Shown one piece after another: positions 29,579 through 45,319 of a stretch of 51,676 nt of DNA; positions within the stretch are counted from its first letter, which is position 1; each line of letters opens with the position of its first letter. The stretch lies in sequence record PZ534514.1, one strand, 5' to 3'. The position numbers and the translations under genes are program-made. The stretch is from a phage. The notes under the pieces are model-generated. The model saw only the letters and a program-made list of their open reading frames with translations, was not told the origin of the DNA and searched no databases.

Positions 29579-29624
29579 ACTTTAACAAATGCCCTCGCGG
29601 AAGTTTTAACAAAAAGTGCTATTA
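29579..29624 (-). promoter_or_regulatory. Promoter-like element, conserved motif family
   Basis: Minus strand TAATAGCACTTTTTGTTAAAAC, 22 bp, TAAAGT, then leader and ATG at 29546. Confidence 0.5.
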
Positions 29625-34421: not shown

Positions 34422-34468
34422 ATTATGCCTAGTTATCGTTTTTGAGTTTTAACAAAAAGTGCTATTTA
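34422..34468 (-). promoter_or_regulatory. Promoter-like element, conserved motif family
   Basis: Minus strand AAATAGCACTTTTTGTTAAAAC, 22 bp, CATAAT, then hairpin gggcggcacggcgtcgccc. Confidence 0.55.
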
Positions 34469-34884: not shown

Positions 34885-34930
34885 ATTATGCCAGGATTTG
34901 CACCTGGCGTTTTAACAAAAAGTGCTATTT
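34885..34930 (-). promoter_or_regulatory. Promoter-like element, conserved motif family
   Basis: Minus strand AAATAGCACTTTTTGTTAAAAC, hairpin gccagg/cctggc in spacer, CATAAT. Confidence 0.55.
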
Positions 34931-35655: not shown

Positions 35656-35829
35656 GGCGTCTACTCCTTTTGTTGCGTTTAAACTGGCTGCATTATTGCC
35701 TTGCCCTTCCTACATGTCAATGTATTTTTGTGTTTTGATAACAATTTTTGGCGCATGGCGTGTTTAAAGATAACAAAATGCTTCAGTTAAGCCATTGGTT
35801 TTTCTGTTAAAAATGACCTTGTTGACTTG

Positions 35830-36040
35830 GTTGACGGAGGATTGCTCCATACCCATATATATACATACAAAAATCACCACACATCACCATTGATTAAAAA
35901 ATATACAATCACACATACATATCACCGCAAACAATACCACTCCACCATATACCCATAGAACAATCTCAACAGTAAATAACAAATATAAATACATATATAA
36001 CTAACTTATTGATTTTATGGGCATATATATAAATTTTATT
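35830..36040. promoter_or_regulatory. AT-rich divergent control region with ATCACC repeats and IHF-consensus site; homologous to 6230-6440
   Basis: ATCACC repeats at 35871-35930; taacttattgatt at 36002-36014; repeated ttgacttggttgac at 35822-35835. Confidence 0.5.
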
Positions 36041-36308
36041 TTGTTCTTTTTGTTGATGAACGCCGATTCTGTTATCTAAAAGTGCGGAGGCTTGATTGTG
36101 ATAACGCAGGGAACAGAAATAACAGATGCGCTCTCCAGGATTGCCGGAAAGGACGCAAGAGGGCCGCGTTTCTCTATCCCCTCCACACAAAAAGTTAATC
36201 AACTGATTAAAATTGATCAAACTCAAAGTCTCACAATCCAGGTGATCGCGAATGATTTATTCCTGTTATTCCTGATTAATGGAATAGATGGAATAATGAC
36301 CAGCCAGC

Positions 36309-36354
36309 AAATAGCACTTTTTGTTAAAACTGAATTGTCCTGATCGGGTACATT
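36309..36354 (+). promoter_or_regulatory. Promoter-like element, conserved motif family
   Basis: aaatagcactttttgttaaaac, 22 bp, tacatt, leader acatcgaaacga, RBS aggag, ATG at 36393. Confidence 0.55.
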
Positions 36355-36392
36355 AGACACATCGAAACGAGATACCCATCAGGAGAAAGCAA

Positions 36393-37448: not shown

Positions 37449-37492
37449 ATAGCACTTTTTGTTAAAACTCAATCCTCGCAATCCGATATATT
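37447..37492 (+). promoter_or_regulatory. Promoter-like element, conserved motif family
   Basis: aaatagcactttttgttaaaac, 22 bp, tatatt; palindrome cctcgca/tgcgagg spans the -10; leader catcgacaacgaa. Confidence 0.55.
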
Positions 37493-37678: not shown

Positions 37679-37949
37679 GTTTTGCAGCTATACCGATACT
37701 GTGGATTTTGATGGGATACAATTGCCCCTCCCGAACAACTACAGGTACATAACTCGTGACCGTTTCGGCTTTATCCAGGGGTGGCGGAACAAACCAACAC
37801 ACACTGAGTTCGGTATGTCTGGAGGAGAAGAGTTGCCGATCACTTTTGGGCATCAAAGCGGTGAAAATCTTCCGGTTGTTGCGCGTAAGTATCGCAGACG
37901 CAAGATCGCAAGAGCACTTATCTCTTTAACTGGATCTGTTGTTGAATAG
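37668..37949 (+). CDS. Hypothetical protein
   Basis: ATG at 37668 with RBS ggag; ORF-track start at 37608 lacks an RBS. Confidence 0.5.
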   Translation: MSSKFCSYTDTVDFDGIQLPLPNNYRYITRDRFGFIQGWRNKPTHTEFGMSGGEELPITFGHQSGENLPVVARKYRRRKIARALISLTGSVVE

Positions 37950-37989
37950 CACTTTTTGTTAAAACCGATGCGCCTCTGATTGGTATATT
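37944..37989 (+). promoter_or_regulatory. Promoter-like element, conserved motif family
   Basis: gaatagcactttttgttaaaac, 22 bp, tatatt; palindrome gatgcgc/gcgcatc; leader catcgacaacgaa. Confidence 0.55.
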
Positions 37990-40070: not shown

Positions 40071-40457
40071 ATGAAAGTTATCTGCAATAAAACCAACGTT
40101 TTGATGAACGGTCGTTATAAAGCTGTATACGAAAAAATCGCTGGTAGCGATGATGTGATCGAGTTGGAACAATTCCAGGTAAAGAGCATTACAAAGGGTA
40201 GTAAGTGGCAAAACGCTGTTGAGTCTGACTATCGTCATATCAAGACAAAAACAATTAAATGCACCTTTGTAGATCACAAGATCCCGTGTAAAAAGCATTT
40301 CAAAGAAGGGAAGCGTTACCAGATTGAGCAAGGTCGCGCGCTTGGCGCTGTTGCTGGTTATGTGTTTGATGAGGCTGGCGACCGCTGGACGCTATACCGC
40401 GAAGAGGTTGGATTTTCCGCTGGTGGCTGTCATTTGTTTGAGGCTATGTATAAGTGA
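40071..40457 (+). CDS. Hypothetical protein
   Basis: 128-aa ORF, RBS aaggag. Confidence 0.6.
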   Translation: MKVICNKTNVLMNGRYKAVYEKIAGSDDVIELEQFQVKSITKGSKWQNAVESDYRHIKTKTIKCTFVDHKIPCKKHFKEGKRYQIEQGRALGAVAGYVFDEAGDRWTLYREEVGFSAGGCHLFEAMYK

Positions 40458-40743: not shown

Positions 40744-42327
40744 ATGAATTTTTCGTTTGAAACCAATAAACTAACACCAAAACAAATTATCGAATTAGCT
40801 GATGCACAAGGATTGTCTCCGGTGCGCGTGTCCATTCAGGCAAACGGATACCGTCAATCGTCCAGCTTTTGGGGTGAGGTTAATGATGTTAATAACGGAA
40901 ACGATCGCTACCCTGTAATTTCTCTTGGCAATGATGTTGATGTTGTTGGAAAGTTGGCGCGCAACATTGCTCGATCTGTTCAATTCCCTGAATCATCGGC
41001 ATATATGCATTTTATCGGATGTGTGTCTGCTGCAATGCTTGGACGCTTCACTGTTGAGTATCACGGAACGGATCAGCCGACCGCTCTTTATGTTGTTACA
41101 AGCCAGCCTCCTTCAACTGGTAAATCTGCCGTTAACAGCCTGGCACTTGCTCCAATGGTTGCGGAAGTGGAAAGAATTAACGATCAGCGAAAGAAGGAAA
41201 GAAAAAAGATTCAGGCAAAGTTGGCAGGTCTTACAAAAGAGATGAAAAGCGAGCGCTCCGGCGCTGATATGGAATCTCTGTACCAGGAGAAAGAAGATCT
41301 GGAAGAAAAACTGGAAAAGATGTGTGACATCGTTTTCCCTGTGTCCGACACAACGCCGGAAGGACTTGCAAGAATCAACAATCGCCAGGGTAACTTTGCT
41401 GTGATTTCAGACGAGGCAACGAGTATTAACAGCCTTTTAGGTCTGACATATGCCAATAGCGAACGTAAAACCAACAGCGAACTTGTGCTGAAAGCATGGG
41501 ATCATGGTCATGTTTCTATAGCTCGTGCAAACGCTGACAACAATATGAGTTTTAAAGCTCTTGGCTGTATGGCGGTAATTGCCCAGGATGAAACAATCAA
41601 TGCCATCATGGATGCAGGATCGCGCGGTATCGGTGTAAGTGAGCGTTATTTGCTTGTGCGTGAGGAATCATTTTTAGGTCGTCGAAAGTTTGTTGATGAT
41701 AACGGTGATTCGACTTATGAGCCTGTTGATGGAGAACTGAAAAGTCAATATTTTAAGCTGATCCATAACATCATGAGTGAATCAAACATCCAGCTTAAGA
41801 TCAGCAAATCAGCAATGCGAGTTCTTAACATGGCTCGTCAGGAGATGGAGCCGCACCTTGCTGATGGAGGAAAGTATTCGCATACAATGCTGCGCGGTGC
41901 GCTTGGAAAAATGGATAAGCAGGTGATCAGGATTGCTTCGGTTTTGCACACTATCCGCAATTGGTTTAATCCTGGCGGATACCCTCAAAAGTCGAAAGAG
42001 ATTGAGGTTGAAACCGTTCAGGAAGCATTGCTGATGTTTAGCGAGTTGAGCAAAACATACATTAGCGCCGCCAACGCTTCTGGCTACGCTGGTGATGATG
42101 CTGAAATGGGTAAACTAATCGAGATCATCACTCGACACGGCAAGGCTAATAAGGGAATCTTGAATGTTCGCGCCATATATGAGGCTGCACGAAAAGTTAA
42201 GCCGTTTGTTGGTCAGGCTGGCGTAATGAAGCGCATGGAAACGCAACTGCTTCCGATGCTTGAGGAAAGAAATTATATTTGTGTGATTAATGGCGTTGTT
42301 TTCGTAAATCCAACATTGCTGGGGTAA
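40744..42327 (+). CDS. P-loop NTPase-like early protein of unknown function (527 aa)
   Basis: RBS aaaggag; Walker A-like SQPPSTGKSAV; charged coiled-coil segment after it. Confidence 0.7.
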   Translation: MNFSFETNKLTPKQIIELADAQGLSPVRVSIQANGYRQSSSFWGEVNDVNNGNDRYPVISLGNDVDVVGKLARNIARSVQFPESSAYMHFIGCVSAAMLGRFTVEYHGTDQPTALYVVTSQPPSTGKSAVNSLALAPMVAEVERINDQRKKERKKIQAKLAGLTKEMKSERSGADMESLYQEKEDLEEKLEKMCDIVFPVSDTTPEGLARINNRQGNFAVISDEATSINSLLGLTYANSERKTNSELVLKAWDHGHVSIARANADNNMSFKALGCMAVIAQDETINAIMDAGSRGIGVSERYLLVREESFLGRRKFVDDNGDSTYEPVDGELKSQYFKLIHNIMSESNIQLKISKSAMRVLNMARQEMEPHLADGGKYSHTMLRGALGKMDKQVIRIASVLHTIRNWFNPGGYPQKSKEIEVETVQEALLMFSELSKTYISAANASGYAGDDAEMGKLIEIITRHGKANKGILNVRAIYEAARKVKPFVGQAGVMKRMETQLLPMLEERNYICVINGVVFVNPTLLG

Positions 42328-42329
42328 TT

Positions 42330-42722
42330 ATGTTTCTTCTGGATCTGTATCGCTGGTGTGAGTCATTCGAATGGTTTACACGTCAACATATAGCAAAATT
42401 TGTCTTTCAGCATAGAGAATGTGAGCGGCTCGCAAGGGCCGCAGGATTTACGCCGAGAATGTTTGCGACTGCCGTTTCAAAAGAGTTTTGCGCAAGAATG
42501 ATGACCGCTGGTTATCTTGATGGAGTTGGTGGAAAGTTCTGGTGTAAGAAAGGATCAGCAAATCGACCTTTCTCGTTTGAACTTTACAGCCTTGAAGGTA
42601 TGCAAAACGAATGGGTAAGGGATGTTTTAAGGATCGGAGAAATGAGCGATGAAGAATTGTTTACGTCAAATGCTAATAGACAAAATATTGAAGTTCTGCG
42701 CCGTAAGTTCAATCTCACATGA
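42330..42722 (+). CDS. Hypothetical protein
   Basis: 130-aa ORF immediately after the 527-aa gene. Confidence 0.55.
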   Translation: MFLLDLYRWCESFEWFTRQHIAKFVFQHRECERLARAAGFTPRMFATAVSKEFCARMMTAGYLDGVGGKFWCKKGSANRPFSFELYSLEGMQNEWVRDVLRIGEMSDEELFTSNANRQNIEVLRRKFNLT

Positions 42723-44105: not shown

Positions 44106-45221
44106 TCAACCAGCCATTTCTGGATAATGCATAAATCGCCCGACTTCTCCGTATTCTTTATCGTAAACAATAACAGCCGCACGGCGACGAGAACGCCACC
44201 CACCGCGCGCCGCATATGCATCTTTTGCCGCCATAGTGCTATGCACTTCAACAATGCCCAGGCTTGTTTCAGTTACTGTCTGATGATGCCAGTGCCCTAC
44301 GTGAGCATACATCATTTTTGAATTGCCGAAGTCTTCGCGCCAGTCTGCCGCGCACATCATTAGCAATGTTTCAGGTTTGCGGATAGTATGCCCGTGATGG
44401 TATGCCAGGAACGTTTTGCCATATTGTGTGTGATGAACTACTCGCGGAGACACATCAACATGCACACGCGGCTCATTCTCATATGCTGCCGCCATTGCTG
44501 CGCGCAACCAGATCATGCCGCTTTGGTCGTGGTTTCCTTCAATAATCTGAATCTCGACGTTTTTGTGTTTTGATAACAGCTTTGTAATTGCTCGACGCAC
44601 TGACCGAATGGCAACGTAGACCAGTTTTGCGTATCGACTATCTTGATCCAATACGTGACCGCTTGCAGGTGTTACCGCTTCCAGTCCGTCGCTGTGAAGC
44701 ATATCACCACCAATCAGCAAGACAGCTTTTTCACTATCCGGCGCGCACTGGATGGAATAATCAATGAAATTATTCATTACGCGCTCTGCTGTTGCTGTAT
44801 CCCAATTCTCGCCGCATTCATGCTTATGCGCCATTGCTCCCAGGTGCATATCAAAGATCGGATACAGTGATAACGTCTCGCTATAATCATTTTGTGATTC
44901 TTGCTGTGGATCAAGTCGAGGAACTTCTTCGCTAAATGCATCCATAGCGGCCTGCATTAATGCTTCTAACTGTTCGCGGTCCTTACTTGTCTTAACCCAT
45001 GTCATAACCACATTGCCATCTTTATCAATTAGCTTTGATTCTCCAGTAACACCAAAACCAGGTGATCCGATGGTTGTAACTTTACCTTGCTTTGCTAATC
45101 GTGCCGCGCGGCGCTCAATGCTGCGAACGTTCATACCATACTCATTAGCGATCTGCTTATATGTCTTTCCCTGCTTGCGCTCATTGATAAATTGTTCATC
45201 TGTGATTTTGATTTGCTTCAT
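44106..45221 (-). CDS. Calcineurin-like metallophosphoesterase with N-terminal HTH
   Basis: ATG at 45221 with RBS aaggag; GDMLHSDG and EGNHDQ motifs; HTH-like YKQIANEYGMNVRSIERR. Confidence 0.7.
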   Translation of the reverse strand: MKQIKITDEQFINERKQGKTYKQIANEYGMNVRSIERRAARLAKQGKVTTIGSPGFGVTGESKLIDKDGNVVMTWVKTSKDREQLEALMQAAMDAFSEEVPRLDPQQESQNDYSETLSLYPIFDMHLGAMAHKHECGENWDTATAERVMNNFIDYSIQCAPDSEKAVLLIGGDMLHSDGLEAVTPASGHVLDQDSRYAKLVYVAIRSVRRAITKLLSKHKNVEIQIIEGNHDQSGMIWLRAAMAAAYENEPRVHVDVSPRVVHHTQYGKTFLAYHHGHTIRKPETLLMMCAADWREDFGNSKMMYAHVGHWHHQTVTETSLGIVEVHSTMAAKDAYAARGGWRSRRRAAVIVYDKEYGEVGRFMHYPEMAG

Positions 45222-45319
45222 CAAAAATTCTCCTTATCTCATTATGACAACATATACAATAGAGATCGCCATCATAACAGGTAAGGGCAAAAGTAACAAA
45301 CGCCACATGATAACAATCC

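Follow-up and report, generated by a model that had tools for sequence, protein, structure and literature searches.

A DUF3987-family AAA+ protein is the probable replicative helicase of a T1-like phage

Which protein unwinds the DNA at the replication fork of a T1-like phage? T1 is a founding model phage whose replication machinery was never worked out, and the question is raised anew by a gene in sequence record PZ534514.1, the 51,676-nucleotide (nt) stretch of phage DNA analysed here and referred to as the window. The open reading frame (ORF) begins with an ATG at 40744, ends with its stop codon at 42327, codes for 527 amino acids (aa), and is the largest in a + strand block spanning ~36.4-42.8 kilobases (kb). 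A first-pass annotation, made from the letters alone, had placed this rightward gene correctly and at its correct size, but described the product as an unassigned P-loop protein of unknown function, offering replication, DNA-end processing or recombination, and anti-defence as possible roles. DNA replication is the most likely of these; an anti-defence role is disfavoured by a negative PADLOC search, and other phage genes fit recombination and DNA-end functions better. We conclude, with a probability of roughly 0.7, that this DUF3987 AAA+ ATPase, which has an MCM-type motor fold, forms rings and serves the phage as its own replicative (fork) helicase.

The protein matches Pfam DUF3987 (PF13148) with E=2.3e-43 and 149.2 bits (gathering score 27) over aa 82-431, covering positions 3-350 of the 364 in the profile. 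A full-length match to PHROG 2373, "DNA helicase", has E=1.3e-245, NCBI gives the same name to a protein 99% identical to it, and RefSeq already has the right label for the gene; in records of close relatives it appears as "DNA helicase", "putative helicase" or "hypothetical protein". The earlier view that the gene lacked any assignment is contradicted by these identifications. It is already known as a member of a described helicase family, rather than being a new kind of system, and its novelty is low because it has been recognised and annotated within that family. We found no meaningful match in an NCBIfam search, and searches of PDB sequences with the single protein and with the family profile returned only coiled-coil artefacts (augmin, ROCK1, gp41 and GCN4) on a charged hairpin described below. 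Nor did the 527-aa protein show homology to a helicase loader (DnaC/IstB type, lambda P) or a primase family; the first-pass annotation had regarded clear homology to a characterised loader or primase as contrary to its interpretation, and although such homology is lacking, membership of a characterised helicase family amounts to much the same in spirit. That interpretation is, overall, partly supported.

The region is 97-98% identical to the Hanrivervirus phages pSf-1, Henu8, egaa and JakobBernoulli (T1-like siphoviruses of Escherichia and Shigella; Drexlerviridae). At E≤1e-5, 167 protein clusters match the 527-aa protein, and its orthologues come from 921 phage records, of which 900 show near-full coverage; nearly all are T1-like phages of enterobacteria, with identity dropping to ~35% in Vibrio and Aeromonas phages. 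In T1 itself the orthologue is ST9 (58% identity), and the gene directly behind it, ST10, is orthologous to that of the 130-aa partner (50% identity). A family profile built from 21 orthologues picked out 5,767 representatives (E≤1e-3) from a library of 1.84 billion proteins. With 167 clusters, 921 phage records and 5,767 profile matches, the protein and its features are not due to chance, and its distribution marks the gene as a core gene of T1-like phages. We note that MG065649.1 and MG065669.1, labelled as Campylobacter jejuni phages, carry a gene whose product is 99.4-99.6% identical to the Escherichia coli Hanrivervirus version in genomes of similar size, and 21 "Campylobacter phage" records occur among those bearing orthologues; the two named genomes are probably mislabelled or contaminant T1-like coliphages.

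Previous work on DUF3987 bears directly on function. Kazlauskas et al. 2016 (PMC4889955) described the phage DUF3987 proteins, phage N4 dns among them, as divergent superfamily 6 (SF6) helicases that are distant relatives of MCM, carry a winged helix-turn-helix (wHTH) at the C-terminus, are often associated with archaeo-eukaryotic (AEP) or DnaG primases, and were predicted to be replicative helicases. Kazlauskas et al. 2018 listed DUF3987 among the ATPase domains fused to primases, and placed a staphylococcal genomic-island helicase in DUF927. A 2025 Nucleic Acids Research paper (PMC11724360) reported that the purified PriCT-DUF3987 protein AgaPH unwinds DNA 5'->3' using ATP or dATP, requires the residues of both Walker motifs, A and B, and binds its primase-polymerase. 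Our own survey of 28 family members of at least 600 aa, scored for extra Pfam domains, found only primase or replisome domains: Prim-Pol, Zn_ribbon_DnaG/CHC2, BT4734-like_N AEP, PriCT_2, RepB_primase and NrS-1 polymerase HBD. One long member carries a fused DnaB N-terminal domain.

To identify the residues that matter, we built an alignment of 138 sequences, consisting of the protein and 137 representatives of the family, each 440 aa or longer. Six residues are invariant in all 138: K127 (Walker A), E224 (Walker B), R261, G297, R301 and K389. Q121, P122, T204, E206, Q281 and E307 are nearly invariant (Q121 and P122 are each kept in 133 sequences, Q281 in 137), E300 is found in 128 and R384 in 99, and position 252 is conserved as W, F or Y. 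The Walker A-like motif noted in the first-pass annotation, SQPPSTGKS at aa 120-128, is borne out, and the protein is a P-loop ATPase, as that annotation held. Position 223 is variable (D in 53 sequences, A in 50 and S in 28), and the family Walker B motif is therefore hhhS-x-E. R301 lies within G-x-S-E-R-[FY], directly before strand beta5, and by this position corresponds to the MCM "SRF" arginine finger. From its position, the insert around R261 is a candidate DNA-contacting pore loop, at the place of the pre-sensor-1 hairpin. As read from the alignment, the catalytic set is complete and invariant, comprising K127, E224, the candidate arginine finger R301 and the lid residue K389.

Structure prediction, proposed as a check in the first-pass annotation, points to an MCM-type AAA+ motor. 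The AlphaFold2 model, computed with an orthologue alignment, has a mean predicted local distance difference test (pLDDT) of 85.7 and a predicted template modelling score (pTM) of 0.84. It begins with three short helices (aa 12-42) in a region, aa 1-66, that takes the place of the primase or DnaB-N domains in the fusion architectures of relatives, and which may serve for primase docking. In the alpha/beta ATPase core, strand beta1 (aa 116-120) runs into the P-loop, and the Walker A helix grows out into the helices of the hairpin (block-mean pLDDT 83-95 over aa 125-192). This is the "highly charged coiled-coil stretch" of the earlier reading, which holds up well: K, R, D and E make up 51% of aa 139-195, compared with 21% in the protein outside aa 129-192. 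A long insert at this place is the family norm, with a median of 76 residues (range 32-93) between K127 and the TPE motif among the 138 representatives, although a few distant members have only a short one or almost none. There follow the Walker B strand (217-222), an insert for which the model is poor (232-272), a strand (273-280), a helix (282-292), a further strand (302-306), a helical lid (330-406) and a winged helix (451-521), such that the long C-terminal domain seen previously resolves into the AAA+ lid and then the winged helix.

A Foldseek search with the model gave MCM2-7 subunits as all of its top 24 matches, and in a structural comparison MCM scored 15.6 and ComM 9.3. Among the structural matches listed there is no DnaB- or RecA-type helicase, no DnaC and no DnaA, which argues for an MCM-type AAA+ motor and not a RecA fold, and the motor is, in the model, an MCM-type AAA+ module. 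A DnaB-like RecA-fold helicase was considered, as the Walker A motif resembles xPPSxGKS, but was ruled out by the fold and by the AAA+ neighbours. The protein should nonetheless be filed as DUF3987 and not as MCM, because the MCM likeness is at the level of the fold and the N-terminal collar is missing.

The rest of the genome is consistent with the need for such a motor. The full annotation of a close relative includes an SSB, Erf, exonuclease VIII, a primase, two helicases, Dam and Dcm methylases, and a polynucleotide kinase, but neither a DNA polymerase nor any gene resembling DnaB or DnaC; the TLS paper likewise reports no such genes in T1 and TLS. The window codes for a primase with a T7-type zinc ribbon (Pfam Zn_Ribbon_Prim, E=1.9e-12) that matches PHROG 510, "DNA primase", only at positions 5-316 of a 667-position profile, corresponding to the N-terminal half of the primase-helicase family. 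By this measure it is a stand-alone primase that lacks a helicase half; a PDB sequence search gave no match to it, and its TOPRIM domain is thus putative. The other helicase is RadD-like and adjoins a VRR-NUC nuclease, and homology makes these a repair or recombination-type pair and not a fork or ring helicase. The fork-helicase reading fits the genome because the close relative has no annotated polymerase, DnaB or DnaC, the primase lacks a helicase half, and the only other helicase is RadD-like. In the distant Aeromonas phage AsC4_1 (35% identical), the DUF3987 gene, a zinc-ribbon primase and a superfamily 2 (SF2) helicase lie in one co-directional block.

Two annotation matters touch these genes. 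The AsC4_1 DUF3987 orthologue (5941-7500 of the stretch compared) is annotated "DNA primase", yet it aligns co-linearly with the helicase and contains no primase domain; the gene for the true zinc-ribbon primase, ORF40, lies 1.4 kb downstream. In T1-like phages, the RadD-like gene is the one usually annotated as "the" DNA helicase, and a recent re-annotation paper presents this SF2 helicase as "the" replication helicase and leaves the DUF3987 gene unmentioned; the literature tends to overlook the DUF3987 gene in favour of the RadD-like one.

In the phage SSB a Q/P-rich linker is present and the last residues are ...PMDFDDDIPF. Its DFDDDIPF tip is the same as that of the E. coli SSB C-terminal tail, which recruits host replication proteins, and this suggests that the interaction network of the host SSB is open to the phage protein as well.

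Directly behind the helicase gene lies the small conserved 130-aa partner that the first-pass annotation had also pointed out. Its ATG is 2 nt past the helicase stop (...CTGGGG TAA TT ATG...), with a GGGG Shine-Dalgarno-like run just upstream, and because of this spacing the two genes look translationally coupled. Outside T1-like phages the partner is not known. An acidic D-x-E-L-F motif ("SDEELF") is invariant in it and, in some orthologues, is found at or close to the C-terminus; the resemblance of this motif to acidic aromatic tails such as SSB-Ct is a lead only. The 43 N-terminal residues, in which M1, F2, L4, D5 and Y7 are nearly invariant, are modelled with a block-mean pLDDT of 91-97, and because they are conserved and confidently modelled the 130-aa form is the real one. 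In RefSeq, the egaa partner (6899-7162 of the egaa stretch compared) is annotated as an 87-aa "YdbL" starting from an internal Met. "YdbL" has no Pfam support and looks like a propagated label, and the partner appears to be both mislabelled and shortened in some records.

In the mechanism that we propose, six subunits would assemble into a ring, ATP would bind at the interfaces between them with R301 reaching across in trans, and hydrolysis round the ring would let the R261 loop draw one DNA strand through the pore. The helicase would cooperate with the stand-alone zinc-ribbon primase and the phage SSB, and the unwound template would be handed to host DNA polymerase III (Pol III), since no phage polymerase gene was found. 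The helicase would probably load itself, perhaps with help from the partner, because we found no loader gene, the protein has a winged helix of its own, and a second winged-helix protein is translated right behind it. If its polarity is like that of AgaPH (5'->3'), it would sit on the lagging-strand template, as DnaB or T7 gp4 do, and this placement fits because the primase is of the DnaG type and a relative has a DnaB N-domain fusion.

Several observations weigh against this reading. In the model the first 100 residues form helices and no OB barrel, and the N-terminal OB/zinc domain of MCM is absent; no helix-2 insert is evident in the model (helix 205-215), and the pore-loop region is its least confident part (pLDDT <50 at aa 258-264 and 266-269). 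Pfam MCM (PF00493) gave no match to the 527-aa protein at E≤1, and PDB searches by sequence linked no solved structure to the protein or to the family profile. D223 is replaced by A in two orthologues, with the family-invariant E224 kept. The primase gene is ~7.5 kb from the helicase gene and in another transcription unit, unlike in many DUF3987 systems. In the literature searched there is no experimental work on the 527-aa protein or any T1-family orthologue, and nothing on coliphage T1 DNA synthesis with dnaB, and T1-type phages may still need host DnaB; the hexamer, the helicase activity and its polarity are predictions.

Some of the same evidence could be read differently. The protein could be mainly a replication initiator, an AAA+ protein that recognises and melts the origin, alone or with its partner, and recruits host DnaB. 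The translational coupling to a second winged-helix protein is consistent with this, as is the lack of any other initiator-like gene in the annotation of the close relative, and the SaPI Rep proteins unite initiator and helicase roles through their C-terminal winged-helix domain (WHD; PMC9371898). However, one DUF3987 member, AgaPH, is a proven helicase, and the family fusions to primases and to a DnaB N-terminal domain are those expected for fork helicases. Moreover, when 35.5-43.3 kb was searched for iterons and other repeats, no array like that of an origin turned up within the gene or next to it, the one repeat inside the gene (41169-41220) corresponding to codons of the charged hairpin, and no iterons are reported for TLS. 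We regard a mainly initiating role as unlikely, although it would be compatible with fork unwinding if the protein does both jobs. Alternatively, the protein could be a recombination, repair or DNA-end motor, acting for example in branch migration or in the restart of recombination-dependent replication; T1-type phages do have a strong recombination module, with Erf, an exonuclease VIII-like protein, VRR-NUC and the RadD-like helicase. But these roles already have dedicated candidates in the genome, the fusion partners in the family are primases and not recombinases or nucleases, the MCM score is well above that of ComM, and the helicase gene lies in what the first-pass annotation called the early operon, apart from the Erf/exonuclease VIII-like module at 3.9-6.1 kb. 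We consider this explanation very unlikely.

The idea of an anti-defence or host-takeover ATPase unrelated to replication came from the first-pass annotation only, and draws on the many small unknown genes around it in the + strand block, a common location for host-takeover functions. We reject it as scarcely credible because PADLOC gave no real match, only a coiled-coil one to JetC (E=0.0047, aa 140-199); in addition, the gene is present across T1-like phages rather than being accessory, its helicase motifs are complete and invariant, and the primase fusions and the proven activity of AgaPH are those of a helicase family. In a Druantia/Zorya preprint and a Nature 2026 Avs paper, escape mutations fall in structural genes and Avs20 senses RecA-type ATPases; the helicase is not implicated.

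We return to the replicative helicase. A bolder form of this reading, which we regard as doubtful, is that ST9/ST10-type pairs form a self-contained module for origin loading and fork unwinding. The MCM-fold ring would run 5'->3' on the lagging-strand template, as DnaB does, and be loaded with no DnaC-type loader; the charged hairpin would replace the N-terminal MCM collar, and the partner would couple the ring to host factors such as the Pol III holoenzyme, with its SDEELF motif acting like the acidic tails of SSB or T7 gp4/gp2.5. If true, a classic coliphage would use a hybrid replisome, combining an archaeal/eukaryotic-type motor with a bacterial-type primase and polymerase. More generally, once the DUF3987 protein is seen as the likely helicase of the fork, a defined replisome can be put to the test (MCM-fold helicase, zinc-ribbon primase, host-tailed SSB and host Pol III), and there is a tractable E. 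coli system for asking how an MCM-like AAA+ ring cooperates with a bacterial-type primase and polymerase, and with which polarity.

Table 1. Positions in the window of the helicase gene, its predicted parts, and other features discussed
Feature	Positions	Strand	Basis
Helicase gene, 527 aa, DUF3987-family AAA+, T1 ST9 orthologue	40744..42327	+	
N-terminal region, aa 1-66: three short helices and linker, T1-like clade-specific	40744..40941	+	Model; alignment of distant members
Walker A / P-loop QPPSTGKS, aa 121-128	41104..41127	+	K127 invariant
Charged antiparallel helical hairpin, aa 125-192, inserted after P-loop helix	41116..41319	+	Model helices 125-169, 173-192
Walker B strand FAVISDE, aa 217-224	41392..41415	+	Model strand 217-222; E224 invariant
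Insert before sensor-1 strand, aa 252-272, with R261; candidate pore loop	41497..41559	+	Conservation and position
Strand beta4 and sensor-1 position, aa 273-283 (...VIAQDE)	41560..41592	+	Strand 273-280; Q281
GVSERYLLVR, aa 297-306; candidate trans-acting arginine finger R301	41632..41661	+	G297/R301 invariant; strand 302-306
Helical lid of AAA+ module, aa 330-406; LRGxxGK (R384, K389)	41731..41961	+	Helices 330-344, 355-372, 381-388, 390-406
C-terminal winged-helix domain, aa 451-521	42094..42306	+	
Partner, 130 aa, T1 ST10 orthologue: winged helix and C-terminal helical tail with acidic SDEELF	42330..42722	+	
Stand-alone zinc-ribbon DNA primase, putative helicase partner	49832..50827	+	ORF from first possible start; relatives annotate ~310 aa
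RadD-like SF2 helicase	47230-49341	-	E. coli RadD homologue, PDB 6jde, E=6.7e-41
VRR-NUC nuclease, adjoining RadD-like helicase	46824-47276	-	
Phage SSB, putative link to host replication proteins	3467..3913	-	Translation; SSB annotation in egaa
18-nt motif, perfect copies	29603-29620, 34446-34463, 34909-34926, 45788-45805, 46808-46825	-	
18-nt motif, perfect copies	36313-36330, 37451-37468, 37948-37965	+	
18-nt motif, degenerate copy AGCAtTTTTTGTTAAAtg, 53 nt upstream of helicase start codon	40674..40691	+	

Upstream of the helicase gene is a degenerate copy of an 18-nt motif, AGCACTTTTTGTTAAAAC, which occurs at 15 sites in the window at ≤3 mismatches, with 0.07 expected by chance; a second degenerate copy lies upstream of the gene at 40071. 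The copies are intergenic and mostly oriented like the local genes, and the motif is also found in JakobBernoulli, egaa and T1, where copies begin right at gene ends. It accounts for a recurring "VLTKSAI" peptide in spurious antisense ORFs. It does not fit the sigma-70 consensus promoter, and in a sigma-70 scan consensus sites were rarer than in shuffled sequence, with none before the helicase gene. A regulatory signal common to the family is the likely nature of the motif.

Between the divergent leftward and rightward blocks there is a 740-bp non-coding gap (35656-36392), the AT-richest part of the region, with a GC content of 29.5-31.5% at 35800-36100 compared with ~44%, a GC skew of -0.49, and CA-rich repeats such as CATATATATACAT and ACAATCACACATACATAT. 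It is a candidate for the early control region, a replication origin, or both. Elsewhere, between the lysis cassette and the Dam methylase gene, a leftward gene (44106-45224) codes for a 372-aa protein with an N-terminal helix-turn-helix (weak Pfam HTH_28), metallophosphatase-like GDxxH...GNHD motifs, and a match to PHROG 704, "DNA repair exonuclease" (E=5e-151).

Among known systems, the closest are the DUF3987 helicases AgaPH and N4 dns, which belong to the same Pfam family, share the Walker A lysine, the Walker B glutamate and the C-terminal winged helix, and likewise have a primase in the same genome and a predicted replicative role. AgaPH has a fused PriCT, whereas the 527-aa protein has no PriCT or primase domain and instead a short clade-specific helical N-terminus; the phage primase has a DnaG/T7-type zinc ribbon, is not an AEP and is encoded 7.5 kb away, there is a clade-specific winged-helix partner, and activity and polarity are here predicted only. 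The likeness to MCM (SF6, in archaea and eukaryotes) lies in the AAA+ fold, the insert at the pre-sensor-1 position, the candidate arginine finger in an S-x-R-[FY] context before beta5, and the winged helix after the ATPase. Unlike MCM, the phage protein has no Pfam MCM match, no OB-fold/zinc collar and no evident helix-2 insert, but has a 65-residue charged helical hairpin after the P-loop helix; MCM moves 3'->5', whereas AgaPH, the sole DUF3987 member tested, has the opposite polarity, 5'->3'.

The SaPI Rep/PriRep and SCCmec Cch proteins (PMC9371898) are also AAA+ helicases of mobile elements with a C-terminal winged helix, which work with no separate loader and are often fused to or paired with a primase. 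They belong to a different family, however, with 3'->5' polarity, and their origins are iteron arrays directly beside the gene, of which none was found beside the gene described here. DnaB and T7 gp4 (superfamily 4, SF4) differ in the motor, which in the 527-aa protein is predicted to be AAA+ and not RecA, with no match to Pfam DnaB_C. They would nevertheless share its job, that of a ring helicase working with a primase of the zinc-ribbon/TOPRIM type, and the DUF3987 family itself shows the likeness, with one member carrying a DnaB N-terminal domain, another a DnaG-type zinc finger, and AgaPH moving 5'->3'.

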